Below are positions 20,795 to 63,945 of a stretch of DNA of 64,000 bases, piece by piece. The position numbers and the translations under genes were made by a program. The stretch comes from a virus (lineage: Duplodnaviria; Caudoviricetes): IMG/VR virus record IMGVR_UViG_3300011008_000021, positions 36,765-100,764 of that record. One strand, given 5' to 3'. The notes under the pieces are model-generated. The model searched no databases, was not told the DNA's origin, and saw only the letters and a program-made list of their open reading frames with translations. The number at the start of each line of letters is the position of its first letter. Positions within the stretch are counted from its first letter, which is position 1.

Positions 20795-23700
20795 TCAGTC
20801 AGTAATCTCACCTGCTACAATAAGGTCTGAATTCAGAACCTTAAGATCGTACAGAGTTGACCAACCTTGTGATGTACCACCATCAGCATACTGAAGAAGC
20901 TGAGTAGGAACAATAGGCATGTAAGGTGCATACACAGCAACTGAACTCATTAAGTCGTCACCGTTAACACCAACTAAATATCTGTTTGCAGCAATTGCTG
21001 GTGAAACAAAGACCTTTAACCCATTGAGGGTACCTGCAAAATATGGACCGTTGATTGATCCAGTAGGAGCTGCGTTCCATCCATCAATAAATGTAAGGAT
21101 AGGAATAATATTAGATGCAACTACCATATAGTTAGGAGCAACATTAATCTTTAATATGATTCGCTACATCATATTGGGAATTTTTATTCCCCACTTATTT
21201 TCATAAGTGATGAGACTATATCTTCATCTTTTCGGATGTGACTTACTTCCACTTCGCTTGAAGTGTACTCCCTTTCGGGATAGTCGTTGGGGCTGAATCC
21301 CATTAGGATTCCTGCCTGCTGATTATCCAATCCTACAACTTTTTAAACCATCATATATTCATTACTGATATATTGTGGTATGTAGGCTCTAAGGATTTTC
21401 CAGCATATCAAGTCATTTATTATTCAAACATGTTTCCATGTAAGCGAGACTTGTTTACCTAATTGTAAACTTGATTTATCAATATATTTGTTATATATTA
21501 TGCTGCTAATAATAAATCAGTTAATCTCTTTGTCTTATCGTAGATAAGTTGTCTTGCAATCTCAACTATCTCAGTAAATCCTGCATAGTGATCTCTCTTG
21601 CTAACACCAACAGGAAGTGTCTTGCTCCATGCAAGTGCGGTCTGTGCAGTTCCTGCTGTTTCATCAAGTAACTGAACTACTTCTGTATCAATTTCATATG
21701 AAAGCTGTCCAACTGCCTTCTCAGCTAACTGATCTCCAAGATCAAATCCATAATCAGTCTTAGCTTGGAATGCTGCCATTTGGCTTGCGTATCTTACGTT
21801 TATATCGTTTCCATATAAACTCTATATATTACTACATAGGCGGGACTATATCATATTCTTAATTTCTTTTACCAAAACTAAGAATCCATGCACTTCGATT
21901 CCACTTAGAATCTACTCTACTTTCTTGTTCACTTATGTCTTTCTCATAAGATATGATTTCGATAGTCTCTGAACTTTACTTTCATAATAGAAAGTCTTAG
22001 CTGCTGATTGTCCTATTAGCATGGCAATTCTAATAGGAGTTTCCAGCAATTCACATGGTTTTTCATAATTTATTTCATTAAACTCAATTTGGATAAATCA
22101 CTTCATAATTTAAATTATTAAGAGTTGCATAATTTCTTTTTTGAACATCCCTTTTTGTCCAAACATCTATAATCATATTAGACCAATCTGTATTATCTTT
22201 CTTTAACTGCTCTAATAATTTTAAATCGTCTGAATTATTTTCATCAAATGGATGTCCACCATGGGATGGGTGATAATTAACTTCTATAAATTTATCTTCT
22301 GACTTAATATAAAAATCACAATCAAAAGGGTATCTCTCATCAGAATATTGTCTAACAATATCTGACTCATCATACATTTCTAATAAACACTTGTATAATT
22401 CTTCTTCAGGTTTTGACTTATTAAAAGAATTATTCTTTTTCATTGTTTCAAAATGCTGATTCCAAATATCCTTATTCTTTAAAGGATTTGTTACACCATA
22501 ATTCTTTAACAATGTCTTTGTATATTTATCTCTACTTTCAGGAACTAAATTAGGTGATTTTTGACCATATCTTTCCAACATAGTATTTTCATATTTCTGT
22601 TGAGCTTCTTCGGTCTTTTTAGAATCACTTATTTTCTTCCTTATCTCTGGACTTTGATTGTGTTCTTTATAACCATATCTTTCTAAACTTGTTTGTTGTG
22701 CTTTTTCATAATTATTATAATTAGCATCTCCATATCTATCAAGCTTAGTTTGTTTTACCTTTTCAACATTTGTTAAACTCTTTTTACCATATCGTTTCAT
22801 CATGGTTGAATTACGAGCTTCTCTAAAATGTTTCTTTTGTTCATCGGTTAAATATCTTCTACCCATATTTACTCTCCTAATAGTAAAAATATATAAATGT
22901 AGTAATCTAAAGAATTTAGGACTTCTTTAAAAACAGTTTGCAACCTGCTGTCCTACATTATAATCATATTATAACACAATTATAATGATTTGTAAATTGA
23001 GATTTAATTTATAAAATTAAGCTACAGCTTTTAAGTCTTTATAGTAGACTGCGATTCTTCTGGCCTTTGCAATTAATGGAATGCTCTTCATTTCAGCCTT
23101 AAGCATTGGAAGATCATTTTGAGGAATTACAACATTATCGTAAACATAAGCAACTTTAACAGTATCAGTAGCTCCAATAGCAGTACCAGTACCATTTGAA
23201 AGAGTTAATGTTTTTCCATCGGTTGCAACAGTAACTGATGCATCATCTGCAACAGGAACTGCAACTCCAGCAGATGTGGTTATAGAAGTAATTCTTGCTT
23301 TTGATGCTGTATCAGGTCCATTATAAACTGGGAACCAAGAAGCAGTAACAGCAGCATTGGCACCTGTGAATGATTCTACCACTCTTGCAGCAGTATAATT
23401 AGGATCAACATTTCCTAATTTAAATGGGCTGTTAAAGACATCGCCGTTAGTGGTTTCGCCCTTTGTAGACCCAGCCTGATATTCAATCAATCATGTTAAT
23501 CATAAATATTCTTAATATATAACTTTATAATTTAAATTATTTTCTTTAGCAACTCTTTGTTTTTCAACATCTCTCACTGTCCATGTTTGAATAGCATTTT
23601 GATAAAATTGAGATGTTTTAGCTTTTTCTTTCCACTCATTAAGTTGCTGAATACATTCTTCATCATCTGGATTAAATGGTTTACCACCATGTGTCCAATG

Positions 23701-26700
23701 AGCATTTAACTCTATAAATAAATCATCTTCTACAATATAGAAATCACAATAAAATGGATATCTATCCTTATCCTTGTAATTTCTTAATATTGTTTTATTA
23801 GAATAATCTTTTAATAATGATTCATATAATTCATTTTCAGGCTTAGATGTATTAAAAGAATTATTCTTTTTTCTTGTCAAATACTGTTTATTAGTTTTAA
23901 TAATGAGTCTATCTTTAGGAAGGTGTTTACCTTTTAAAGAAATGGAATTAGATTCTCCAATTCTCCTTTTATGTTCCTCAGATAAGTGTTTGCCTTTATT
24001 ATAACTCGTAGAACCATATCGTTCTATTCTTGTGTTATTGGAATGTTCGGAATAACTTCTAACACGCTTATCCGTATCCTTGGTTAAACCTTTATTCCAA
24101 ACACTGATCTCATTAGTAGAATATCTTTCTTTAAGTGTTTTACTTATTTTTTCTTTTACTTCTTTTGAAACAGATTTACCTTTATTTGAAGGACTTCTAC
24201 CAATACGTTTTTTTCTGTTTTCTTCCTTGTGTTTTTCAGAAACACCTTTTATCCACCCTTCATTTAGATATCTCTGTAATTCATTTGGATAAATTCTTTT
24301 TTCCAAATCATCCTTATGAATAACTATTCTACCTTTTTGAGTATTTGAACATTTTTCTGATTTATTCATTTGTTGAATTCTCCATAAAGAATATATAATT
24401 TAAAATTATTACATTATAAGTTATGGCTTATAATGTTTGAGGTCATATATCAGTAATATCAAATTCTTAATATTACTATTAAGTTCAGACTATATCATAT
24501 TCCTATATCGTGTTAACCTTTATAGGAATCCATGCACTTCGGATATTCCATAATATCCTACTCTACTCACTTACCATATAAAGTATTTCTCTTTATAATC
24601 CGTTTTCGATAGTCGTTGAACCTTCCTATTGATTAATCATATTATAATTAGTGAAATTCGTCAATAGGCTTGGCTTCTGATTGTCCTGCTGGCTAATACA
24701 GGATATTCCAGAAATTCACATGGTATTTTTTCATATGCATTACTGCATACGCATACTGAATTTCAATATGTGACATATCCAGACATAGAACTCATCAATT
24801 ATGTTACGAATATATCGTTTCCATATATTCTCATTATATTACTATAATGTTCAGACTATATCATTATCCTATATTCTATTACCGTTTATAGGATACCACA
24901 CATTTCGAAAATACTTATTTTCTACTCTACTCACTTACCATATAAAGTATTTCTCTTTATAATCCGCTTTCGATAGTCGTTGAACCTTCTTCTTTTTAAA
25001 GAAGCTTGGCTGCTGATTGTCCTAAATACTATGTCATATATATATAGGGTTTTCCAGCAATTAATGTGGTTTTACATATTGTTTAATTTATTTATCTATA
25101 ATAAGTCCGTTTGGATATATAATTTTAAAATTTAAATTATTGTTTCTAAAAGTTTGAAGTTTTTTTGGATCTATTTCGGTCCACCATTTATAGATATTCC
25201 AATATCTACTTCTTGGACCTTTCTGTTCAGCTTTAGATCTAATTTGTTCTGCTTCTTTTATATGTTCTTCATTATTAGGATCAAAAGGTCTTCCATTATG
25301 TTCTATTGTTCCATTTACTTCAATAAATAAATCTTCTGAAGCAATATAGATATCACAATTATATGGATAACGAACATCTCTATATGGATGAATTACATCT
25401 TCTTCACCATATTCTTGTATCAACTCATTTATTAGATCTTTTTCTACTTTTGATGAGTTGAAGCTACTATTTTTCTTTTTAGTAGAATATTCTTTTTGTT
25501 TTGCAAGTTCCCAATCTTTTACAAAACATTCATGTCCTTTTAGTTTATTGCTAGCAGACATCAAAGAAGCATTTGTTTCTTTAGTTAAGCCTTTATTCCA
25601 AGGTACATGACCCATCATGGATTGAGATTGCTTTAATTTTCTCTCTTCACTTGCAGGTATTCCTTTATTCCAAGGTTCTTTTCCTTTTCGATAAAGACTT
25701 AATTTTTTAGAAATAGTTTCTAAACTATCATTTGTATCCTTAGTTAACCCTTTGTTCCAAGAAACATAATTTCCTTTTTGTAATCTTGTTTCCTTTGTTG
25801 CTTGTCCATTAGCTTTAACTCTTTCATCTGTTTCAGCAGTTAAACCTTTATTCCAAGGATTAGATTTAAAGGTTCTTCCTGGATAAAAACCAAGCGGTAT
25901 ATCATCACCAGGTTTTAACTTGATAGTTCTAACTCCATTAGTGAAAAATTTTATTTTATCCCCTTCATAAATATCTTCTATCAACTTAAATTTAAATTTC
26001 ACAATAAATAAATTAATATATGTATCATTATATATTACTACATAATGCCCCTGAGGTTAAGGGTGAACAATTACAAGATCGTTGGCAATTAAATTCGGAA
26101 GTGCGACATTTGTTAAATTTAAACAAAATTTCTTAAACATTCCCATGTCTGCTCTCTGAGTAGCAGAAGAAGCATCAAATGCCTCGTTTAAGAAATCTTG
26201 AGTGTTCTTTAAGCAACGAGCCAGTGTAATTTTTCTATTATTATCCATCTTTTCTCCAAGATGTGATTTTCCGTAGACTGACTCAGCAATTTGAATTCTC
26301 TTTTTATCAAATATGTTACGAATTAATCGTGTCCATTAATTCTCTATATGTTTCCATATAGTTCAGACTATATCATATACCTCAATTGTTTTAACCTTTT
26401 AAGGTACCCCATCACTTCGAAAATACTATTTTCTACTCTACTTTGTTATTCATATAAGTATTTCTCTTATATTATCATTTCGATAGTCGTTGAACCTTCC
26501 GTTCAAAGAACGGCTTGGCTGCTGATTATCCCTGGCTAAAGGATTTTCCAGCAATTCAATGGGTTTTATTAAACTAATGTTTATTTATTAATAACTAAAT
26601 TTTTATATATTATTTCAAAATTTAAATTATTATCTCTAAATATTAGTTCCACATATTACTATGTGGAAGCTCAAAAAATTTAAGCTTCAACTAAATTCTG

Positions 26701-53581: not shown

Positions 53582-53654
53582 TGATCCTTACCAGATTCGA
53601 ACTGAGTATTTCAACCTTGAAAGGGTTGCGACCTTACCATTAGTCGAAAGGACC
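53582..53654 (-). tRNA. tRNA-Glu (UUC)
   Basis: Cloverleaf; anticodon arm CAACC-CTTTCAA-GGTTG; one bulge in T stem; no encoded CCA. Confidence 0.85.
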
Positions 53655-53795
53655 TCTTAAACCCTTTTTTATTATGTAGAAAGTCTTTCACATGGTAAAC
53701 TACTTATTATTAAACCGGCTATCTACGGGTGGCCCATAAGGTGGACCAGCTATGAATTCCACATATATTAAGAAAGGAGGACCAACTATGTTTCA

Positions 53796-53884
53796 TCGGA
53801 GCTCCGGGACTCGAACCCGGATTAAACCTTGTTAGGGTCTACGGTTTATAAGACCGTGGCTTTCACCAGTTACGCTAAGCTCCG
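53796..53884 (-). tRNA. tRNA with UAU anticodon (Ile) and long variable arm
   Basis: Acceptor CGGAGCT/AGCTCCG; ACGGT-CTTATAA-ACCGT; V-arm AGACC/GGTTT; T arm CCGGG-TTCGAGT-CCCGG. Confidence 0.85.
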
Positions 53885-54120
53885 TATATAGATAATGTGA
53901 AAGACCTACCACATTATCTTTGGCTCATATTTATTTATATAGCGCACCAACTTGTTTTTATAAACAATAAACATATCTGTTTGGGTCTTAGCCATCCGTG
54001 CGCTTTATATTAGCTTAGTAATTTTACATTCACTTTATACTATGCTATCTAATGTGAAAAACCAGGAAATATATTCCCTTATGAATTTATATACCAAGTT
54101 CGGTTGATCGGTTCTACGTA

Positions 54121-54317
54121 TGTTGCGGGTAAGGATTTGCACCTTACATAGTTGGAGTTTTAGGATATTATTGCTCTCGATTACACTCTGCGTTACACCC
54201 GAAGGCTGATAATGATAACTGGTTATCCGCTGACTCAGAGTTATTTTACGAATTACGCACACTCAACCAACCTATAAGAAGCCTCACTCTAGCGTCTACC
54301 TATTCAGCCACCGCAAC
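54121..54317 (-). ncRNA. tRNA-Leu-like shell with ~125-nt insert in the anticodon loop
   Basis: Acceptor GTTGCGG/CCGCAAC-A; D arm TGGCTGAATAGGTAGACGC; T arm GTAAGG-TGCAAAT-CCTTAC. Confidence 0.7.
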
Positions 54318-54386
54318 CTTTAAAGTGAGTTTACAGCGAACACCAACCTAACTCACTTTTAAATAGTGTTCTTACTATTTATATTA

Positions 54387-55289
54387 TTATGCGGCAATCT
54401 CGCTATAAAAAGCATCTACAATGCCATGACCATTTGCGATCTTATTCCAACGACTTTCTTCGAAGTTCTGAGTAAGTCTTCCAGGAGCTGCGTGGTCAAT
54501 ATAGTCAGTTACTGCATTCAGTGCGCCCCAAGCAGTTCCTCTAAAATTTCTAAGATCTGTTGCTTCCAGAGCCTTAAACATACCTTCTTTAATATCTACA
54601 ATATTTCTGATTTTTCTTTCAGAATCTTTGTTCTGATCAATTGGAAATACTCTGTCAAACACTCTTTCAAACTGATCAGTTGTGAATGTTGTTTGTGCAA
54701 GTCTGTCAGCATCATTCGCAAGACCAATCATATAATTGTTTGCAAGACCGAGTGTATGTTTTGCTTCCTCAAGTTTCTGAGTAATATTACCCATATGTCT
54801 TGTAGACCAACTTCTGCTTGCATTCTTAAGAGCAAAATTAAGTGCATTACTGCAAGCAATTCTGATAGGAGTCATTGCAACTTTGATTGCACCTGTTCCA
54901 TCGTGACTATTGATAAATACTACATAAGGATCGAACTTGTCACCTAAAATGTCGGTGGACGGAAGTTTAGCTAAGAGCCATACAGCTCTTCCATGATGAA
55001 ATACACCAGCCTTCTCAAAAGTTACACCTCTCTGAGTAAGAGAATTAGTGAAATCAAAAGCATCAACATTCTGTACGATCTGGTATCTTCTTCCAACAAT
55101 TCCAAGAACTTCACCATCACTGGATCGTGTGTTTGCAAAATATCCATCAATTACATTTCCAGAAGAATTGTAAACAGGATTGCTTACAACATCCCAATCA
55201 AGTCCAGACATTGCAAGTGCTTCGTCTGCTGTAGTTGCTGTGGTTACATCGGTTCCAAGCTGATTCCAAGGAAGATTTCTGTTAAACAT
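54387..55289 (-). CDS. DUF932 (phage/plasmid TIGR03299-like) protein
   Basis: GLDWDV, Y.IVQN.DAF, NSHDG, TPIRIACSN, RH, GTAWGALNAVT. Confidence 0.85.
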   Translation of the reverse strand: MFNRNLPWNQLGTDVTTATTADEALAMSGLDWDVVSNPVYNSSGNVIDGYFANTRSSDGEVLGIVGRRYQIVQNVDAFDFTNSLTQRGVTFEKAGVFHHGRAVWLLAKLPSTDILGDKFDPYVVFINSHDGTGAIKVAMTPIRIACSNALNFALKNASRSWSTRHMGNITQKLEEAKHTLGLANNYMIGLANDADRLAQTTFTTDQFERVFDRVFPIDQNKDSERKIRNIVDIKEGMFKALEATDLRNFRGTAWGALNAVTDYIDHAAPGRLTQNFEESRWNKIANGHGIVDAFYSEIAA

Positions 55290-55334
55290 ATTTTTTGTCC
55301 TCTTTTCTTTTTTTAGTTAATTTTTACATTATTT

Positions 55335-55363
55335 AGTATAACACAACTTGAAATTAATGTCAA
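55335..55363 (-). promoter_or_regulatory. SigmaA-type promoter
   Basis: TTGACA-17-TATACT with TG extension. Confidence 0.75.
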
Positions 55364-55564
55364 CCGTTTTCCTGTAAAATAGAAATTTATTTATTCAACT
55401 CTTTATCTATATATCTTTTTAATTCTTTAATTGTAGTTTCGGTTTTCTTATAAATCTCAAGAATCTTATAAGAACTATCTAATATAAGATATTCAGTATT
55501 ATTTTCTTTAATAATATAATTATTATAGACTAAATTTCTTGTTATGTATTTCATTTAACTATTA

Positions 55565-55774
55565 TTACCATTCAAAATATACACCACAGGTATTACATCT
55601 AAACATTCCTTCTGAAACATTATGAGGATATCCCATGCAATTACAGATTGGACAAATATAACCTTCAGATCTCTTTTTGGCTCTAATTCTTACAATAGGT
55701 TCGCAGAAATTCTCGTCCTGCATATAAGATCCTGAAAGAGTAATCTTTGTTGTATTATACAATTTATTTCTCAA
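55565..55774 (-). CDS. Small zinc-ribbon protein
   Basis: CPIC...CNTC. Confidence 0.55.
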   Translation of the reverse strand: MRNKLYNTTKITLSGSYMQDENFCEPIVRIRAKKRSEGYICPICNCMGYPHNVSEGMFRCNTCGVYFEW

Positions 55775-55971
55775 ACTCTTTTAGCCTCACCTTTCTCATA
55801 CTTGAGTTTAATTTCTTCAATTGAAATCTTCGAGATTGATTCTAAATCATCAAGGTGAGGATACTCTACGTACCATTTTTCTTTAGGAGTATTTTGAGTT
55901 TCTGAAATAGTACAAGCCTCGGTATAATTTCTTGTAAAGAACTGACCTACCTTATAAAAAACAATAGTCAT
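55771..55971 (-). CDS. Hypothetical protein
   Basis: 66 aa, AAAGGTGG RBS. Confidence 0.5.
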   Translation of the reverse strand: MTIVFYKVGQFFTRNYTEACTISETQNTPKEKWYVEYPHLDDLESISKISIEEIKLKYEKGEAKRV

Positions 55972-56008
55972 ACAACTTCCACCTTTCTTAATTATATAAA
56001 GATTGAAT

Positions 56009-56266
56009 TTAATCCAATGCTAATACAATTTCTTTCGTATAAAGGAGCCAGTTAAAATACTCAACATAGAAATAAGCTGTTTGATATCCTTCGTGTGATG
56101 CTCTAATCGTATACCCATCACTCATTAACTCGATATTACATCTTACCAAATCACAGAATTCTTCTTTTCTGTTAAGCTGTCCAATAGGTAACAACTTAAT
56201 CAAGTAAGGTACATCAAAATTAATCTTATATTTTGAAACATAATCCACAGATTTTTTCTTACGCAT
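56009..56266 (-). CDS. Hypothetical protein
   Basis: 85 aa, AAAGGAG RBS. Confidence 0.55.
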   Translation of the reverse strand: MRKKKSVDYVSKYKINFDVPYLIKLLPIGQLNRKEEFCDLVRCNIELMSDGYTIRASHEGYQTAYFYVEYFNWLLYTKEIVLALD

Positions 56267-56289
56267 TACTTAACTCCTTTCTTTATTAT

Positions 56290-56318
56290 AGTATAATACA
56301 TATTTTAATTATTGTCAA
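56290..56318 (-). promoter_or_regulatory. SigmaA-type promoter
   Basis: TTGACA-17-TATACT. Confidence 0.7.
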
Positions 56319-56907
56319 GACTAAATTTATCTACTAGACATTCAGTATATAACTGATGAATTAAATTATAGCAGTCTTTCCAATTATCAACTCTATAGAT
56401 ATAAGGATACTCTGAAATATCTACATCGCGATTATAGAATGCTTTAAATAATATTCCTTTATAATTTCCATTTTTTAAATTTTCAATATAATCATCGACT
56501 AATACAAGTCCATTTAATAATTGTTTATTATGAATGGTTATAATCTGACTTTCATCAATAAAAGGAAAATAATGATTAATTACATATTTATATTTATCTG
56601 AAAGATACTGAATATGAGTTGCGGTACAAAGATACACTTTAAATTTTTCATCTATTAATTTCTTTATGTACTTCTGTGCTCCAGAAATTGGATGAACTAA
56701 TTGCCACAACTTAGGATCTTCCAAAGCACCATAAATATGCTGTTTAGGCAAAGTCGTAAATAACTTAGTCATGTCCCATTCTTTAGCATCGTTTGGATCT
56801 ACACACAAACGATATTTATCATTTAAATATATACACCATGCAGACAGCAAATCTTCAATAGTATCATCTACATCAATATAAATAATTCTATTATAATCAA
56901 TCATCAA
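56305..56907 (-). CDS. 5'(3')-deoxyribonucleotidase (HAD, NT5C-like)
   Basis: IDVDDT, LCTA, K..L...LVDD...N motifs. Confidence 0.85.
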   Translation of the reverse strand: MMIDYNRIIYIDVDDTIEDLLSAWCIYLNDKYRLCVDPNDAKEWDMTKLFTTLPKQHIYGALEDPKLWQLVHPISGAQKYIKKLIDEKFKVYLCTATHIQYLSDKYKYVINHYFPFIDESQIITIHNKQLLNGLVLVDDYIENLKNGNYKGILFKAFYNRDVDISEYPYIYRVDNWKDCYNLIHQLYTECLVDKFSLDNN

Positions 56908-57106
56908 TAATTATACCTCTGTCTAATTCATAAGTGAAATTATGACCAGGACACCAATTTGGTTTTACGGTTCTAAGTGACATTTTTAAATTGGGTCTAT
57001 AAGAACAAAGTAGAAATCCACAATTATCTAGATTTCCATATTTTGGATCAACTCTAACTCTAGATCCACAATTAATACATTTACGATCCTGTACTTCCAA
57101 ATCCAT
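56897..57106 (-). CDS. Small Cys-rich protein
   Basis: CINC...C...PNWCP. Confidence 0.45.
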   Translation of the reverse strand: MDLEVQDRKCINCGSRVRVDPKYGNLDNCGFLLCSYRPNLKMSLRTVKPNWCPGHNFTYELDRGIIIDD

Positions 57107-57509
57107 TAGATCCTCTTTCTGTTTCCTTGAAGCAATCTACTAATACTGGTTCCGGCGTTGCAATAGGAAGTATTACTAATTGAGAAATTTTATCACCCTT
57201 ATTAAATTTAAGAAAAGTTCCAGAAGATCCATCTCTATACAACTTAACTACAATCGATCCAGTATAGCCTGAATCTATTACTCCTTCAGATCTAATGCTT
57301 GCTTTTACATTTAGTCCACTTTTACTTTTTATCATTCCAACATATCCATCTGGAATTTCAACATGTACACCAGTATCAATAATTATTTCACAATTACTAC
57401 CAAGTGTAAAATCAATTGGAGTATACAAATCTAGACCAGCATCGGACTTATGAGCTCTTGTTGGGATATAAGCACCATCATCAAGCATTACATTAATCTT
57501 ATCAAACAT
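57081..57509 (-). CDS. dut: Trimeric dUTPase
   Basis: DAGLDL, KSGL, GVIDSGYTG, ISQLV, RGSNGFGSTG. Confidence 0.95.
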   Translation of the reverse strand: MFDKINVMLDDGAYIPTRAHKSDAGLDLYTPIDFTLGSNCEIIIDTGVHVEIPDGYVGMIKSKSGLNVKASIRSEGVIDSGYTGSIVVKLYRDGSSGTFLKFNKGDKISQLVILPIATPEPVLVDCFKETERGSNGFGSTGS

Positions 57510-57640
57510 TTAATTTTCCTCGTTCAGTAAATTCTTCTTATGTTTTTCTTTCTTGTATTTTTTCGATTCAATAACTTTATTTGGAGGTGGAATTTGAATT
57601 CTATATTTAATTGGTTTCTTTTTCAATATCTTAGATTTCA

Positions 57641-58060
57641 TTAATAACTATCATAAAAATAAGCATAATCTTTTGGATTATCTTTTAAATGATTAATTAA
57701 CCAAGAAATATTAATAATATCTTGACCTAGATGTAGAATCATTTCACTTAATTCCCAAATAGTATTATCCCAGCACTCAGGATTCTTTAAAAAATCGTAT
57801 ATACCATTTCGAATTCCAATCAGCTGTTGAATATTAAGTTCATAATATCCATCATTATCTTCTTGAAGTAATTTTGGAATAAAACCAAAAATCATACTTC
57901 TAATATTCCAGCACTTACGCCAGTAACAAATGTCATAAATAACTGAATTGTCCTCTTTTTCACTTCTAGATACTTCACTGATATTTAAATAATCAGGTAA
58001 AGAATCTATATCCAGTTTATTTCCAATTCTTCTTAGATGTATACCATTATCTAATCCCAT
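57641..58060 (-). CDS. Conserved phage protein (MGLD...YWRK family)
   Basis: MGLDNG...ICYWRKCW...FYDSY. Confidence 0.65.
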   Translation of the reverse strand: MGLDNGIHLRRIGNKLDIDSLPDYLNISEVSRSEKEDNSVIYDICYWRKCWNIRSMIFGFIPKLLQEDNDGYYELNIQQLIGIRNGIYDFLKNPECWDNTIWELSEMILHLGQDIINISWLINHLKDNPKDYAYFYDSY

Positions 58061-58888
58061 TTAAATATCTCCTAAAATCGATTTCCAATGATTCCAATAT
58101 CTTACTACAGCTCTACTGTTTTCAGTTGAACCATGATGCTCAAGACCTCTGTTATAAGCATCATAAGCTCCTTCAGTGTTACCATATTTTACAACACATT
58201 TAGAAAACTCATACATTCCAGCATCAACTGAGTGATAAGGATCAAATAAAATTGTTATATCATTCCACCCAAAAACTCTTTTAATATCAGGCCAAACATA
58301 TTTTTTATTTGTTTGACACATTCCATAATCCTTTGTCGCACTAACAACATGAAACTGAATTTCATCAATAGTACCAAAGGTACCAAATTCACTTTCTTGC
58401 TGGCATAATCCTAAAAACAAACAATATTTAACACCGTTTTCAATACATTTATCATATATATAATGTTGAAGATCTTCAGATAATGGAATATCTAATGTTG
58501 GAGGATAAAATTTGTCCGGTTCAATTTCATTTTCATTTCCAAGATCTACAGTATTAATAAATCTATATTCGTTGTTGACAATAATCTTAGTAATATCTTT
58601 ATGTTGTTCAACAATTTCTACTTTACAACCTTTAAAGATCTTATAAGATACATTGCTAATATCATAAGCAACGGTATCTCTAATTACATATCTTACTTCC
58701 CTGATACTCGAAAAATTTTGAATTGATAATTCAGGGGAGATAAGAATTTTAACGTCATTGTCAAATGGACCTTCATTAATATCTATTACTTCATTTTTAA
58801 TATCTATAATTAAATTGTCGTTTGCATAGCAAACAGAACAAGAACTCATGATTAATAACATTGATAACTTAATTATCTTCTTTAACAT
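58061..58888 (-). CDS. Secreted lytic transglycosylase (SLT-like)
   Basis: Signal peptide; QQESEF, DYGMCQTN, AYNRG. Confidence 0.75.
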   Translation of the reverse strand: MLKKIIKLSMLLIMSSCSVCYANDNLIIDIKNEVIDINEGPFDNDVKILISPELSIQNFSSIREVRYVIRDTVAYDISNVSYKIFKGCKVEIVEQHKDITKIIVNNEYRFINTVDLGNENEIEPDKFYPPTLDIPLSEDLQHYIYDKCIENGVKYCLFLGLCQQESEFGTFGTIDEIQFHVVSATKDYGMCQTNKKYVWPDIKRVFGWNDITILFDPYHSVDAGMYEFSKCVVKYGNTEGAYDAYNRGLEHHGSTENSRAVVRYWNHWKSILGDI

Positions 58889-58911
58889 AATAAACCTCCA
58901 TAATCATTATT

Positions 58912-58940
58912 ATAATAACATAGTCTAAGAAAAAAGTCAA
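58912..58940 (-). promoter_or_regulatory. SigmaA-type promoter
   Basis: TTGACT-17-TATTAT with TG extension. Confidence 0.55.
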
Positions 58941-59003
58941 ATAAAAATAGCATAGTAATTTAAATTACTATGCTATTTTTATAAAATATATTTATTAATA
59001 AAA

Positions 59004-59075
59004 AGCAGGTAGCGGGAATTGAACCCGCATCAATTGATTGGAAGTCAATTATAATTACCATTATACCATACCTGC
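59004..59075 (-). tRNA. tRNA-Gly (UCC)
   Basis: Acceptor GCAGGTA/TACCTGC-T; ATTGA-CTTCCAA-TCAAT. Confidence 0.9.
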
Positions 59076-59087
59076 TTAGTTGTGTTT

Positions 59088-59220
59088 CTAGATCCAAAGA
59101 ATTCTACCAGTTAAACTATATTGTACAAAGAACACAACCAACTTTGTTGACAACAATAGGATTCGAACCTATACCTTTCTTGTAGCCTAAGAAATTAATT
59201 ATTTGCTGTTATGGATCTTA
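59088..59220 (-). ncRNA. Skipping-rope-like RNA 1, enclosing a permuted tRNA-like fold
   Basis: TAAGATCCATAACAGCAA...TGGATCTAG; inside, T arm then acceptor stem-loop then D arm. Confidence 0.7.
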
Positions 59221-59226
59221 ATTAAG

Positions 59227-59336
59227 TGGAGCCCTCCGGAGTTGCACCCGTGTCTCAGTTGACGAAACTGCCTGTTGCTTCTTGACATACCTAATATGTT
59301 GTCATCATATTCCCTTTGTCTACACAATATGGCCCC
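59227..59336 (-). ncRNA. Miniature tmRNA-like RNA (tRNA-like domain only)
   Basis: GGGGCC.../...GGCTCC-A with G3-U70; 5' ...TAGAC and 3' GACACGGGTGCAACTCC resemble tmRNA ends; only ~60 nt between. Confidence 0.5.
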
Positions 59337-59429
59337 TGATGGAGGCTTTCATTTTTACTGAATCTTATCCTCCCAGCATAACAGGTTTTTACTTTAATTT
59401 TACGCGTTCCTTCAGGAAGTAATTCCTAA

Positions 59430-59511
59430 CCGGCGGAGTTGGACTCGAACCAACGAAGACCGAAGCCAAGGGATTTACAGTCCCCCGCAATTGCCGCTAT
59501 GCGACCCGCCG
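59430..59511 (-). tRNA. tRNA-Tyr (GUA) with C1-G72 and G73
   Basis: GGGGA-CTGTAAA-TCCCT; long V-arm; acceptor CGGCGGG/TCCGCCG. Confidence 0.85.
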
Positions 59512-59678
59512 AAAAATGTTTGTTTTGACAATCTTATTGGTACAAACGAGAAAAACCTCACCAGTACAGTCGTAACAACGAGACGCCCTTGATACAAAGC
59601 CGGCATCAGTATCTCAGGCCGAACGGCCTCATCCGCTCCTGTCATATCCTGTTAATTCAGGCATCACTCCGGTTGAAA

Positions 59679-59751
59679 TACGCACAGAGAGATTCAAACT
59701 CTCAGTACACTGATCCTAAGTCAGCTGTGGATTCCGTTCCACCACGTGAGC
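59679..59751 (-). tRNA. tRNA-Leu (UAG), short variable loop, weak acceptor stem (possibly degenerate)
   Basis: GCTGA-CTTAGGA-TCAGT; T arm GAGAG-TTTGAAT-CTCTC. Confidence 0.6.
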
Positions 59752-59755
59752 AAAA

Positions 59756-59838
59756 TGCCGGATACCGGACTCGAACCGGTACGATATTTCTATCGAGGGA
59801 TTTTAAGTCCCTTGTGTCTTCCATTCCACCAATCCGGC
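59756..59838 (-). tRNA. tRNA-Leu (UAA)
   Basis: Canonical type II cloverleaf, AGGGA-CTTAAAA-TCCCT. Confidence 0.92.
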
Positions 59839-60008
59839 AGGCGGAAATTTTCCTCCTCAGAGCGGATTACTTTCCAAACCGATCAGCTGATTATACGTTT
59901 CTTTTTTATTAACAACATAAAAGAACACCTTAAAAGAAAATTGCGTGTGAAAATTATTTTTAACAGTTAATACAACACAAAAAACATCTGTTGGCCATTA
60001 ATAAGAAA

Positions 60009-60104
60009 CAAGACTCAATAAGTATAATAGACTTGTATTAATTAAAATCAATTCTTAATTATAATTCTATTTTCATTAGAAGATAATTGCTGTAATGAGT
60101 CTTA
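60009..60104 (-). ncRNA. Skipping-rope-like RNA 2
   Basis: TAAGACTCATTACAGCAA...TGAGTCTTG. Confidence 0.65.
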
Positions 60105-60110
60105 AAAAGA

Positions 60111-60908
60111 TCAAACTAAATCTTCTATGTAGCTTCTATTTTCTTTAAAAACTGGAGTAAACCTATCTAAATTCCAAGATTTTCTAATAAACGATTCACC
60201 TTTATCATTATATTTAGTTGTTTCTACTTTTACACACGCAGTACCATATTTTTGATTAGATGTATAACCATTCCAATCTTGTCCAATAGAAATTAACATA
60301 CTACAAATATCTTTACAAGATTTATTCAATAAATCTTTATTGGAGAAGTAAAATTGTCCAACAGATAATATACTATTTCTAATACAATCATCTTGTCTCC
60401 AAATAAGACAATTTATGACTTCTTCTTTTGGAATTGAAAAAACTCTTGAATCAAAACAAGCACTATTTTCTAATGCTTTTTTATATTGTTTAAATCTATC
60501 ACTATCCCAGCCACCCATCTGACTTTTTACCAAGAACTCATTAAAAATTTTATTAAAATAAAAAGTTGCAAGCGATGCTGAAACTGAACTCATTTTTTGA
60601 ATATTATATCCAAACCAAGCATCAGTATTGATAGTATTGTAATCAGTTAGAACAAGAGTTATTTCATCTGATTGAGTATATCCAAAAACACATCCTTGAA
60701 TATTTTCACAAAGATGTCTTGTAGTTTCTTGCATAACATACATAAAAATAGGATCAAAAGGTTTTTCAAATCCTCTTGTAAATGTATGAAATGCTTTTCC
60801 ATCTAACCTGATGATTACTGGAATATGTCTTGGAAGATATATTCTGGAAATATACTCATACTGCTTCATCCTATTTCCTAACGAATCTTTTCTGTATTTA
60901 TCAGACAT
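60111..60908 (-). CDS. thg1: tRNA-His guanylyltransferase (Thg1-like 3'-5' polymerase)
   Basis: IRLDGKAFHTFT, YTQSDEI, QKMSS..AS, FDSR, WRQDDC.RNSI. Confidence 0.93.
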   Translation of the reverse strand: MSDKYRKDSLGNRMKQYEYISRIYLPRHIPVIIRLDGKAFHTFTRGFEKPFDPIFMYVMQETTRHLCENIQGCVFGYTQSDEITLVLTDYNTINTDAWFGYNIQKMSSVSASLATFYFNKIFNEFLVKSQMGGWDSDRFKQYKKALENSACFDSRVFSIPKEEVINCLIWRQDDCIRNSILSVGQFYFSNKDLLNKSCKDICSMLISIGQDWNGYTSNQKYGTACVKVETTKYNDKGESFIRKSWNLDRFTPVFKENRSYIEDLV

Positions 60909-61240
60909 TATTTCTTCCTTCCAAGCTTGTAACCTAATTCCAGATATTCTTTTAATTTATCAGGTGTTATCTTTATAGTTTCTTTACCATTATTTATAAA
61001 TATCTTCTTTATTTTTCTTTTATCAATAACAGTATTTTCTATTACACCTAAATCAGTTGAACTACTATTTGTAGTTGATACAACATCTTTAAGCTCATTA
61101 ATTCGAATTTGTTTATTATATGTTTCTGCTAATCTTTTTAAAATAATTAAATCTTGATTAGATACATTACTAAAGATAATACCATCTGATTTTCCTTGAA
61201 AATAGGTACTTAAATCATTTGCTAAAGTAACTCTTAACAT
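60908..61240 (-). CDS. Hypothetical protein with C-terminal homing-endonuclease-type small module
   Basis: FINNG...L..YL..GY..GR; GGAGG RBS. Confidence 0.6.
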   Translation of the reverse strand: MLRVTLANDLSTYFQGKSDGIIFSNVSNQDLIILKRLAETYNKQIRINELKDVVSTTNSSSTDLGVIENTVIDKRKIKKIFINNGKETIKITPDKLKEYLELGYKLGRKK

Positions 61241-61264
61241 ATAATACCTCCCTTCTTATACTAT

Positions 61265-61293
61265 ATTATAACATATATATTAAAAGGTGTCAA
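61265..61293 (-). promoter_or_regulatory. SigmaA-type promoter
   Basis: TTGACA-17-TATAAT with TG extension, perfect consensus. Confidence 0.8.
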
Positions 61294-61345
61294 CTCAAGA
61301 AGAGAAGAAAGGAGGAAAAGCTCAGTTAGAGTTGACACCTTATTT

Positions 61346-62386
61346 TCATTTACTTAACATAAGAAACCACCATTCATCAAAAGACATTGTAATAAATTCA
61401 TCTACATTTTCAACTCCAATATCTTTTTCAATCATGTAATTTATAGTTCTATTAACCAACGTATGAATATCATCAATTCTAAAGTTGATTAAAATCTTTT
61501 CTATATATTTCTTACATTCTTTTATCAATGTTCTTGATAATACATCTTCTGACCCATAACGATATACTAATATATTATAATTAAAATATAAATAACCTAT
61601 ATCAGCAAATACCATTGATTTTATACTATCAAAAGATTCCTGAGTTGTAATAAATGGAACAGAACTAAGTATAGAATTAAAAACAATATTACAATAATAT
61701 TTTGCTATTCCATAATGATTAAAAACATATTTACCTTCAACTAATTTTCTATGAGTAGAGGATACGTGTTCATACCACTTATAAGTTAATACTCTATAAT
61801 AAGGTAATGTAAATCTATCAATTTCATTTAATTTAAAAAGAGTCTCTACTACCTTATTATTAAAATACAAGTCTTCTAAATATTGAAGATTTTTCTTAAA
61901 CTTGATCTTATATTTATTAAGAAGATTTTTTCTATTGTAAAATTTTCCATGCAACCACACATCTATATTATCTTGTGGATCTGTGTGATATGTAATTTCA
62001 TTAGTATCTTCGTTGTACTCATATAATAATGTACAACAAATATATTTTAAATTATCTCTATTGATTATTTGAAATACATTATTAAAAGCATCATCTTCAA
62101 ACTCATCGTCTTGATCTATAAAAGTAACCCAATCACCTGATGCTACTGACAATCCAAGATTTCTAGAATTACCTGCACAATGAACATCTAAATCTACTGT
62201 AATTAAACGAAGTGGTAAAATATTATAACAAAAATAATTTCTAATCTGCTCTAAAGAATTATCCGTACAATAATCTGCAACAATAATTACTTCATAATCT
62301 GAAAAATTTTGTTTTACAATTGAATCTAACGTTCTTATTATCGTATCTCCACCATTATGTAGAGGAATTATAACTGATAATTTCAT
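61346..62386 (-). CDS. Glycosyltransferase family 2
   Basis: LSVIIP.HN, D.CTD, SRN.GL..ASG.W..FIDQDD. Confidence 0.9.
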   Translation of the reverse strand: MKLSVIIPLHNGGDTIIRTLDSIVKQNFSDYEVIIVADYCTDNSLEQIRNYFCYNILPLRLITVDLDVHCAGNSRNLGLSVASGDWVTFIDQDDEFEDDAFNNVFQIINRDNLKYICCTLLYEYNEDTNEITYHTDPQDNIDVWLHGKFYNRKNLLNKYKIKFKKNLQYLEDLYFNNKVVETLFKLNEIDRFTLPYYRVLTYKWYEHVSSTHRKLVEGKYVFNHYGIAKYYCNIVFNSILSSVPFITTQESFDSIKSMVFADIGYLYFNYNILVYRYGSEDVLSRTLIKECKKYIEKILINFRIDDIHTLVNRTINYMIEKDIGVENVDEFITMSFDEWWFLMLSK

Positions 62387-62402
62387 ACCTAATTAATTAT
62401 TA

Positions 62403-62516
62403 CAAGACATTAAAAATGGGCAAAATTATTGGATTCGAACCAATCTTTATTTATTATATTAAATATCTTCTTCCTTTAAAGAATCCTGCATCTTAATTAT
62501 TGCTGTAAATGTCTTA
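62403..62516 (-). ncRNA. Skipping-rope-like RNA 3 containing an isolated T arm
   Basis: TAAGACATTTACAGCAA...ATTGG-TTCGAAT-CCAAT...AATGTCTTG. Confidence 0.65.
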
Positions 62517-62525
62517 TCTAATATA

Positions 62526-62598
62526 TGTGCCATGCGGGAATTGAACCCACGACCACTTGATTAAAAGTCAAGTGCTCTCCCAGCTGAGCTAATGGCAC
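62526..62598 (-). tRNA. tRNA-Lys (UUU)
   Basis: Canonical cloverleaf, CTTGA-CTTTTAA-TCAAG. Confidence 0.93.
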
Positions 62599-62604
62599 AG
62601 ATCA

Positions 62605-63759
62605 TTAAAGAATATATCTTAATGAATCTTTATTATTTACTCTCTTGAACAAAATACACTCTACTTCTTTTAACTTCAGCAGTTTAATCTTTTCATCCAA
62701 ATCTTTATCTTGCTGATCAGGATCATTCCAATCCATATTCCAAGTCCATTCAAATGAAATATCAGAAGCGTTTATATAATGCATTCTTGTTCTTAAATCA
62801 TATTGTGAGTCAGACGGAGTACATTTTATAATAGCTTGATGAGTATAATTACTTCGTGAATTTTCTAAAAAGAAACTTAATTCTTGTTCTTCTGTTCCAA
62901 ACAAATCACCATAAAATTTACTATCATTTTTTACAATAGTTCCATCAGTAAATCTAATATACCAATTATAAACATATTCATCTATTCTCACTATATTGAG
63001 ATCATTAATAGAATCTTTAAATGAATAACCTTGATTTAATTCTGAAACAATCGATCTTAAACAATCATAATTTAATTTTGCTTTTGATGCAAAACTTATA
63101 ATATTATCAACTTCATTTAAATAAGATGAATTTAGATTATCGTTTAGATACTCTTTAATTTCATCAATTGCTGGATAATTGAATCTAAAATGATAATGGA
63201 ATCTACCGGGTCTGTTAATAAAGTAATCACTTAATTTATTAATATCATTACAAGTAATTACAAATAACTTTTTAGAAGATACGATTCCATCAAACAACCC
63301 AAGCATTTCTGTTTGAGGATCCATTGATGTTCCAACAGAGTCTTCTTTAGTTCTAAAAACTTTATCGAATTCATCAAAAATAACCATACATTCTTGATTA
63401 ATTGAATTAATAAAGTCTGCAATTCCATCAATGTATTTATCAACTATTATAACTGGATACTCTTCTACAATCTTTTCTGCGAGAAATTTTACAAATAAGG
63501 ATTTTCCCATTCCTTTATCGCCACTAAGAATAACACCAAAATTCTTAATTGACCGTTTAAAAGATTTGATAACTTTAGATCTTTTATCTTTTAATTGGCC
63601 ATATATTTTTTCATTTACACTGATTTCATCAGTTTCTTCAAGACACCACCCAGACATAGGAAAAAACTCTACCTTGTAAAATTTACAAGGTAACATATCA
63701 GAAGTAATTAAATCATCTGCATATATTCTATATGTTGTTCCAGTATTTACGACTTTCAT
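62605..63759 (-). CDS. AAA+ ATPase
   Basis: GDKGMGKS, IFDEFDK, ITCN, NRPGRF. Confidence 0.9.
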   Translation of the reverse strand: MKVVNTGTTYRIYADDLITSDMLPCKFYKVEFFPMSGWCLEETDEISVNEKIYGQLKDKRSKVIKSFKRSIKNFGVILSGDKGMGKSLFVKFLAEKIVEEYPVIIVDKYIDGIADFINSINQECMVIFDEFDKVFRTKEDSVGTSMDPQTEMLGLFDGIVSSKKLFVITCNDINKLSDYFINRPGRFHYHFRFNYPAIDEIKEYLNDNLNSSYLNEVDNIISFASKAKLNYDCLRSIVSELNQGYSFKDSINDLNIVRIDEYVYNWYIRFTDGTIVKNDSKFYGDLFGTEEQELSFFLENSRSNYTHQAIIKCTPSDSQYDLRTRMHYINASDISFEWTWNMDWNDPDQQDKDLDEKIKLLKLKEVECILFKRVNNKDSLRYIL

Positions 63760-63777
63760 ATTAAACCCCTTTCCGTA

Positions 63778-63850
63778 TACCGATAATAGGACTCGAACCT
63801 ACACTACCTTGTTCCTAAGACAAGTGCCTCTTCCATTGGGCTATATCGGT
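63778..63850 (-). tRNA. tRNA-Leu (UAG) with short variable loop
   Basis: Acceptor ACCGATA/TATCGGT-A; CTTGT-CTTAGGA-ACAAG; variable loop GTAGT. Confidence 0.85.
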
Positions 63851-63855
63851 ATTAA

Positions 63856-63945
63856 CGACAGCTCAGGGACTCGAACCCTGACACCGCTTTCACGGCTACT
63901 ACTGGTTTTCAAGACCAGCTCCTTACCAATTAGGATTAAGCTGTC
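63856..63945 (-). tRNA. tRNA-Ser (UGA)
   Basis: Type II cloverleaf, CTGGT-CTTGAAA-ACCAG, G73. Confidence 0.92.

Follow-up and report, generated by a model that had tools for sequence, protein, structure and literature searches.

A Probable Adenosine Ending in a Group I Intron of a Phage Major Capsid Gene

It is taken as a rule without exception that group I introns need a terminal guanosine for their second splicing step. In a phage gene for a major capsid protein of the gp23 family, the fourth of five group I introns appears to be an exception, and we consider it likely that this intron 4 is both intact and mobile, belongs with the IA2-like group I introns, and has an adenosine, A21786, as its last nucleotide. 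This unusual final base is probably genuine rather than a sequencing artefact, since an A ending is also found in an intron of a terminase gene that was recovered on two separate contigs. A base-call error at position 21786 is unlikely but not excluded, given that intron 4 comes from one metagenome-assembled contig for which there are no reads. From the DNA, it could be established where the two splice sites and the helices are, that the core is intact and the guanosine pocket normal, and that the last base is A; for splicing itself, there is no RNA evidence.

The stretch of DNA that was analysed (64 kb, hereafter the window) is the last part of a linear IMG/VR virus record of 100,764 nt with a CheckV completeness of 66%. 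The capsid protein is encoded at 26709-20795 on the minus strand, and PF07068 (Pfam) matches exon 6 as well as the full-length homolog L005. Since this is the single capsid gene in the 100.8-kb record, it must be spliced. All five of its introns are matched by Rfam RF00028 above the threshold; the score of intron 4 is the highest of the five (75.1 bits, E 3e-17; gathering threshold, 50), so intron 4 is not a decayed element. The introns were placed on the basis of homolog alignments and of the sequence itself (Table 1). The six joined exons give an open frame of 453 aa that is 94% identical to the intronless gene of L001 and that has no deviation at 86 near-invariant columns in an alignment of 77 sequences.

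L001:977-2347 is the capsid gene of the closest relative (the 94% amino-acid identity extends over 444 residues), and its DNA has diverged from that of the window's capsid gene by about 17%, evenly spread. The idea that gene conversion, judged against L001, had left a tract around intron 4 was rejected because the divergence is even along the gene, including the intron sites. A split capsid protein starting from the ATG at 21779 was also rejected: M or I is what homologs ordinarily have here, and the ATG lacks a ribosome-binding site. Of the other introns, intron 2 contains an ORF of 304 aa (25088-26002, minus strand) with a weak match to an HNH-endonuclease PHROG, and the 285-aa ORF of intron 3 (23512-24369, minus strand) has no match in Pfam or PHROGs. 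Elsewhere in the window, nine tRNA genes are clustered at 53582-63945 on the minus strand.

Table 1. Positions in the window of the capsid-gene introns, of the exons flanking intron 4, and of the RNA elements of intron 4 (introns are given from first to last base)
Feature	Position	Strand	Remarks
Intron I1	26681-26308	minus	terminal G
Intron I2	26059-24796	minus	terminal G
Intron I3	24765-23488	minus	terminal G
Exon 4	23041..23487	minus	ends ...GCA GUC UAC UAU; homologs continue directly into exon 5
P1 exon strand CUAU	23041..23044	minus	U23041 in U.G wobble at 5′ splice site; read directly
Intron I4 (1255 nt)	23040-21786	minus	first base A23040, last base A21786
Internal guide sequence	23022..23028	minus	GCU 23028-23026 (P10), GUAG 23025-23022 (P1); read directly
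Intron-borne ORF, 260 aa, probably homing endonuclease	22084..22866	minus	between P2 and P3
Catalytic core P3 to P9	21822..22106	minus	RF00028, 75.1 bits
P7 5′ strand GAGACUA	21963..21969	minus	G21969, bulged A21968, guanosine-binding G21967
P7 3′ strand UAGUCC	21843..21848	minus	C21844 pairs with G21967, C21843 with G21969
P9.0 5′ strand GC	21840..21841	minus	covariation alignment
P9 hairpin	21822..21839	minus	7 bp, GUAA loop
P9.1 hairpin	21798..21820	minus	8 bp, GGAAACG loop
3′ tail GUAAGAUAC, then P9.0 3′ strand GC (21788-21787)	21787..21797	minus	aligned relatives
Terminal intron base A	21786	minus	G in 12 aligned relatives
P10 exon strand AGC (Ser codon)	21783..21785	minus	read directly
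Exon 5	21524..21785	minus	begins AGC CAA AUG (SQM...)
Intron I5	21523-21142	minus	terminal G

On the minus strand, the 5′ splice site reads ...GCA GUC UAC UAU(23041)↓AAAGAC... and the 3′ splice site ...GAUACGCA(21786)↓AGC CAA AUG GCA GCA. When IMG/VR was searched with exon 5, homologs were found to be encoded at 80 loci (56-94% identity; 56-92% to the exon 5 query), and in all 80, the counterparts of exons 4 and 5 are contiguous coding sequence with no intron. Enough upstream sequence was present in 79 of these loci for the junction to be tabulated, giving the profile A-[KR]-A-R-R-[IV]-A-[VI]-[YF]-Y↓S-Q-[IM]-A-A-[FY]-Q, in which position -1 of the junction is occupied by Y in 78 cases and by F in one, and position +1 by S in 78. 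The consensus peptide (...AVYY-SQMAAF...) results only from splicing after U23041 and after A21786. Indeed, the conserved Y and SQM are encoded exactly by the codons UAU and AGC CAA AUG that flank intron 4, a match that would be a coincidence if these codons were intron sequence. As around 80 intronless homologs share the YY↓SQ junction, exon 4, judged by their coding sequences, must end with TAT (23041) and exon 5 must start with AGC (21785), which puts the inferred end of intron 4 at A21786. Sliding both splice sites by +1 yields an identical mRNA, and the intron still ends with an A (21785). The ligated capsid junction is predicted to be GTCTACTAT↓AGCCAAATGG. The terminal A had been noticed in a first-pass annotation of the window; the homologs, by fixing the junction, confirm the observation and support its interpretation. 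They are stronger evidence than the alignment of VYYSQ with AAYS of T4 gp23 on which that annotation had drawn.

The structure of the 3′ domain leads to the same base. Alignment A1 comprises 13 such domains, taken from introns 1, 2, and 4 and from introns in the homologous capsid genes of other contigs. In their common architecture, UAGUC(U/C) as the 3′ strand of P7, a single-base spacer, and the two-base 5′ strand of P9.0 are followed by P9 with a four-base loop, an A, and P9.1 with a GGAAACG loop, and then by the tail GUAAnAUAn, the two-base 3′ strand of P9.0, and the last base of the intron. P9.0 is paired in 13/13 domains, directly before the terminal base, in the versions AA/UU, UU/AA, and AU/AU, and in intron 4 as GC/GC (G21841 C21840 with G21788 C21787); the pairs are A-U, U-A, or G-C at one position and A-U, U-A, or C-G at the other, and no one-sided change occurs among the 13 aligned domains. 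Compensatory changes are likewise abundant in P9 and P9.1. In a shuffle control, 0 of 500 shuffles reached the observed values, and with slid partners, 33-55% of the cells were paired versus the 98.6% observed. The column after P9.0 contains G in 12 domains and A only in intron 4. The rule proposed in the first-pass annotation, that the two bases before P9 pair with the two bases before the terminal base, thus extends by covariation from the siblings to other relatives, and it places the end at A21786. A fixed tail length was rejected as a rule because the tails range from 11 to 14 nt: it is P9.0, not tail length, that marks the end of the intron.

Apart from the terminal G, intron 4 meets every group I criterion tested (the RF00028 score, the U.G in P1, the G-C pair in P7, and P9.0 together with P10). 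The U.G wobble is at the 5′ splice site, as required, and can be read directly at 23028-23022, where the guide 5′-GCU-G-UAG pairs both with CUAU of exon 4 and with AGC of exon 5, as had been claimed earlier. P1 (CUAU with GUAG) is short, with only 4-5 bp, and it is not in the minimum-energy fold, where another hairpin is preferred; P10 (AGC/GCU) has 3 bp from +1. In the minimum-energy fold at 23034-23050 (minus strand), AGUCU of the exon pairs with AGACU of the intron, with the 5′ splice site in the hairpin loop; this fold is no more stable than those of shuffled sequences.

P7 in intron 4 reads UUCA-G-A-G-ACUA with UAGUC-C. We take G21967-C21844 to be the guanosine-binding pair, an assignment made via Tetrahymena numbering. 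This pair is kept in intron 4 and is invariant across the 15 related introns tabulated, and the earlier statement that the G-binding pair of P7 is normal holds (with G21969-C21843 as the outer pair and A21968 bulged). The outer pair, in turn, covaries across the 15 introns, being A-U in 10 and G-C in 4; in the four sibling introns, it is A-U with a bulged C versus G-C with a bulged A in intron 4. It might be thought that the G-C outer pair compensates for the terminal A. However, the same G-C/A-bulge variant exists in an intron of L215, which has a normal terminal G and an AA/UU P9.0, and this explanation was rejected. Compensation by the strength of P10 was rejected because the sibling introns, read by hand, also have a P10 of 3-5 bp.

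Two hairpins (P7.1 and P7.2) fold in 21896-21968, between P7 and P3. Two hairpins at this location and an extended P9 domain with P9.0 and P9.1 are features of subgroup IA2 (PMC4227781). Intron 4 is, therefore, described here as IA2-like, on the basis of P7.1/P7.2 and of the covariation-supported P9.0 and P9.1, no formal subgroup classifier having been applied. The 260-aa ORF that it carries matches Pfam DUF7487 (E 8.5e-13) and PHROG 3339, homing endonuclease (E 1.7e-8).

A covariance model, R1, was built from A1 and searched against the retrieved loci, including about 107 viral contigs found by the P4-P5 motif. Among the distinct 3′ domains scoring at least 45 bits, G is the last base of around 34 and A that of 2. 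L215:66-138 and L269:7051-7120 look like further exceptions, but their tails are most likely one base shorter, with G at the end; the basis for this is exon homology in the case of L215 and only a reading of the tail in the case of L269.

The second A-ending intron is in a gene resembling that of the terminase large subunit and was found in two loci from different IMG samples, L325:1516-2500 (= L240) and L327:1514-2500 (= L289). At its 5′ site, the exon ...UUC AAC AGA GAG UAU is followed by AAAAUGGUCUGUACUCU, and AGAGUAU pairs with GUACUCU to form a P1 of 7 bp that has U.G as its last pair. The 3′ side reads UAGUCU-C-AC-[P9]-[P9.1]-GUAAGAUAA-GU-A↓AGAUCAAUUUGG, in which P9.0 is AC/GU, and P10 is formed by AGAUCA with UGGUCU (6 bp from +1). 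At the corresponding point, 77 intronless homologs read ...SFNREY↓RSIWSGDVEN, their profile being ...SF[ND]RE-Y↓[RKE]-S-x-W-S-G-D, where Y is present in 76 and F in the remaining one; the ligated RNA is predicted to read AGAGAGTAT↓AGATCAATTTGG. The sole canonical alternative of the same length gives REL↓RS. Moreover, the 5′ site lies in phase 0, which leaves only A-ending choices among the in-frame 3′ sites from an upstream stop to the conserved W.

The introns of L325 and L327 are nearly identical (one substitution and a 2-nt run-length difference), and their flanking exons have about 11 differing sites; judging from these sequences, L325 and L327 are separate assemblies of distinct genomes. 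The terminase intron is matched by RF00028 in two parts, of 37.9 and 27.3 bits, which flank an inserted ORF. The likeness to intron 4 consists of the A directly after P9.0, the G-C binding pair, the U.G of P1, and the tail motif GUAAGAUA, whereas the terminase intron differs in its outer P7 pair (of the A-U type), in its longer P1 and P10, and in the location of its ORF between P7 and P3. The P7 variants of the two introns are therefore different, but both keep the G-C binding pair. Also common to the two are a P10 from +1, a 5′ exon ending with UAU, an intron starting with A, and a 3′ exon starting with AG. A P9.0 that contains G/C is present in 2/2 of the A-ending versus 5/34 of the G-ending introns (p ~ 0.03), which is a rough hypergeometric count made post hoc on two cases only.

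The capsid family of the window is absent from five complete genomes of the terminase lineage, so the A-ending introns occur in different genes of different phage lineages. Since the ending recurs in a terminase intron of an unrelated phage lineage, the terminal A is, as far as these predicted junctions can be trusted, a recurring natural variant in phage introns.

Two sets of loci met with in this comparison contain in-frame TAG codons. In the terminase homologs L331-L365 and L378 (e.g., L340:109-498), TAG occurs almost only at positions that are Glu in TAG-free homologs: in one terminase exon, the 62 TAG codons correspond to 57 E and 5 D, with columns such as 24 TAG versus 53 E. It looks as though TAG were read as Glu in these homologs and not as the usual Gln, a suggestion that rests on the codon positions alone. 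The other case is L215:1-5410, a capsid homolog on a 151-kb contig with at least six introns, none of which is at the site of intron 4; here, TAG is in frame at four Gln positions of the window's protein, which is the usual TAG-to-Gln recoding.

A comparison with the same intron in related genomes had been proposed, but no second copy of intron 4 was found in IMG/VR or in the metagenome collection. In IMG/VR, a 14-mer from P7/J7-9 matched only unrelated coding DNA, and the ORF of intron 4 found one weak relative and no second intron copy; in the metagenome collection, two intron 4 patterns had no matches. Using blastn against GenBank phages, only short core matches to intron 4 were obtained, with short identical core stretches being shared with Staphylococcus and Bacillus phage introns. 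The tail pattern with A at the twelfth base was present at five loci. L215 and L216 were rejected as A-ending since they resolve to a terminal G with tails of 11 and 14 nt, respectively, and L214 and L217 were rejected as introns. At L218:4519-4593 (minus strand), there is an intron of the same family with the tail GUAACAUAUAAAUG, where P9.0 has no clean pairing to any nearby G. A literature search for G414A found nothing, and no publication describing group I introns of phages or bacteria with A as the last base was found either, which is weak evidence given the incomplete coverage.

One simple explanation for the A would be an error in base calling or assembly, or else a variant from a minority of the population that entered the consensus, with the true end being ...ACGCG and intron 4 being an ordinary G-ending intron. 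A single transition would then explain everything, and the first-pass annotation had raised the base-call error as a caveat, which cannot be removed for a single contig in the absence of an independent copy of intron 4. The caveat is nevertheless weakened by the terminase intron: an A-ending intron of the same architecture exists in two independent assemblies, so an error is not needed. Nor is the contig error-rich, as is evident from the lack of deviations at the 86 near-invariant columns and from the five intron cores above the threshold, and we regard an error as unlikely. Another possibility is that A21786 is real but disabling, such that intron 4 has lost the ability to finish splicing and the genome in the contig is defective. 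Terminal G-to-A mutants of model introns reportedly ligate exons poorly. The natural A-ending intron ND5-717 of hexacoral mitochondria splices inefficiently, with most precursors (>70%) remaining unspliced (PMC6545197). However, the record contains no other capsid gene, gene and intron are otherwise intact, and the A ending persists in two diverged terminase alleles, which argues for its compatibility with phage viability; a disabling A is, in our opinion, very unlikely.

The remaining explanation is that the intron uses a canonical U/G pair nearby. All in-frame combinations of U at -1 with a terminal G were enumerated within 5 residues, and none reproduced the consensus peptide. Two of the pairs are in frame and preserve the length of the protein, namely U23043/G21788, which gives VYS↓SQM and had been named as the alternative in the first-pass annotation, and U23048/G21793, which gives VYA↓SQM; moreover, the guide region contains GCUGU, to which GCAGU could pair. 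Both pairs, however, replace the aromatic residue (Y in 78 of the 79 homologs, F in the other), neither G is preceded by a P9.0 pairing, neither P10 starts at +1, and a U at 23043 would oppose a U in P1. The homolog-like codons UAU and AGC CAA AUG would also be left unexplained as intron sequence. A canonical pair of this sort is hardly credible.

If, as we prefer, intron 4 is intact and ends with A21786, the first step of splicing would be an ordinary one, with free guanosine being held by the G-C pair of P7 and attacking on the 3′ side of U23041, which is in the U.G wobble of P1. In the second step, the 3′ splice site would be set mainly by P9.0 (GC/GC) and P10 (AGC with GCU), and A21786 would replace the usual terminal G in the binding pocket, where it would fit less well than G. 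The 3′-OH of exon 4 would then attack the bond after A21786 to give ...AVYY-SQMAAF.... The A might be tolerated because the G/C-rich P9.0 and P10 hold the site, and one may speculate that a protonated A mimics the two donor hydrogen bonds of G. The efficiency of intron 4 may be reduced or may depend on the stronger P9.0. By analogy with what has been proposed for hexacoral ND5-717, the second step would be slower, and hydrolysis at the 3′ site and the formation of intron circles would be suppressed. Both of these reactions require a terminal G (PMC3679873). Their suppression could, again by analogy, be beneficial in very highly expressed late genes.

This leads to a more general idea, which is tentative and about which we have somewhat more doubt than conviction: a small natural class of IA2 phage introns would combine a terminal A with the G-C pair, would have arisen at least twice (in the capsid and terminase genes), would rely on P9.0 and P10 to replace the contribution of G, and would perhaps be selected in very highly expressed late genes for suppressing 3′-site hydrolysis, circles, or reverse splicing. 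The intron in hexacoral mitochondria that is the natural exception in the literature is difficult to work with and inefficient in splicing; small phage introns that end with A, have a normal pocket, and are in essential late genes would constitute a tractable in vitro system that could reveal how a 3′ site is recognized without G and how P9.0 and P10 compensate. There is also a warning for annotation in that boundary rules demanding a terminal G will misplace some phage exon junctions.

The closest systems for comparison are the G-ending IA2-type introns of phages, that is, the four siblings of intron 4 and the introns in L002-L078, L195, L207, and L215. They share with intron 4 the core, P7.1/P7.2, P9.0, P9, P9.1 with its GGAAACG loop, and the GUAAnAUA tail, but their P9.0 is mostly A/U only, whereas intron 4 has GC/GC along with the terminal A. 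The introns of Twort orf142, of T4 td, nrdB, and sunY, and of Bacillus phages are presumably also IA2-type introns with a terminal G and the same architecture as intron 4. In Tetrahymena mutagenesis, a terminal A combined with the G-C pair is said to ligate poorly, and the activity of terminal-A ribozymes reportedly required a change of G264-C311 to A-U. In contrast to these engineered ribozymes with their A-U binding pair, both phage introns leave the G-C pair unchanged, so that neither intron 4 nor the terminase intron meets the criterion for an adenosine-specific ribozyme.

The only natural precedent found in the literature is hexacoral ND5-717, which ends in A and whose exons are accurately ligated in vivo (PMC6545197, PMC8146996), albeit with the inefficiency noted above; the mention of this precedent in the earlier annotation agrees with these publications. 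The authors of one suggest that the A prevents 3′-site hydrolysis and the formation of intron circles (PMC8146996). ND5-717 resembles intron 4 in having a terminal A instead of G in an otherwise conserved compact core. It differs in being mitochondrial, obligatory, and vertically inherited, in containing 2-15 host genes in P8, and in being partly removed by back-splicing, whereas intron 4 is an IA2-like phage intron with a homing-endonuclease ORF between P2 and P3 and is absent from 80 related capsid loci. Intron 4 thus works like ND5-717 at its 3′ end and is unrelated to it in host, architecture, and inheritance.
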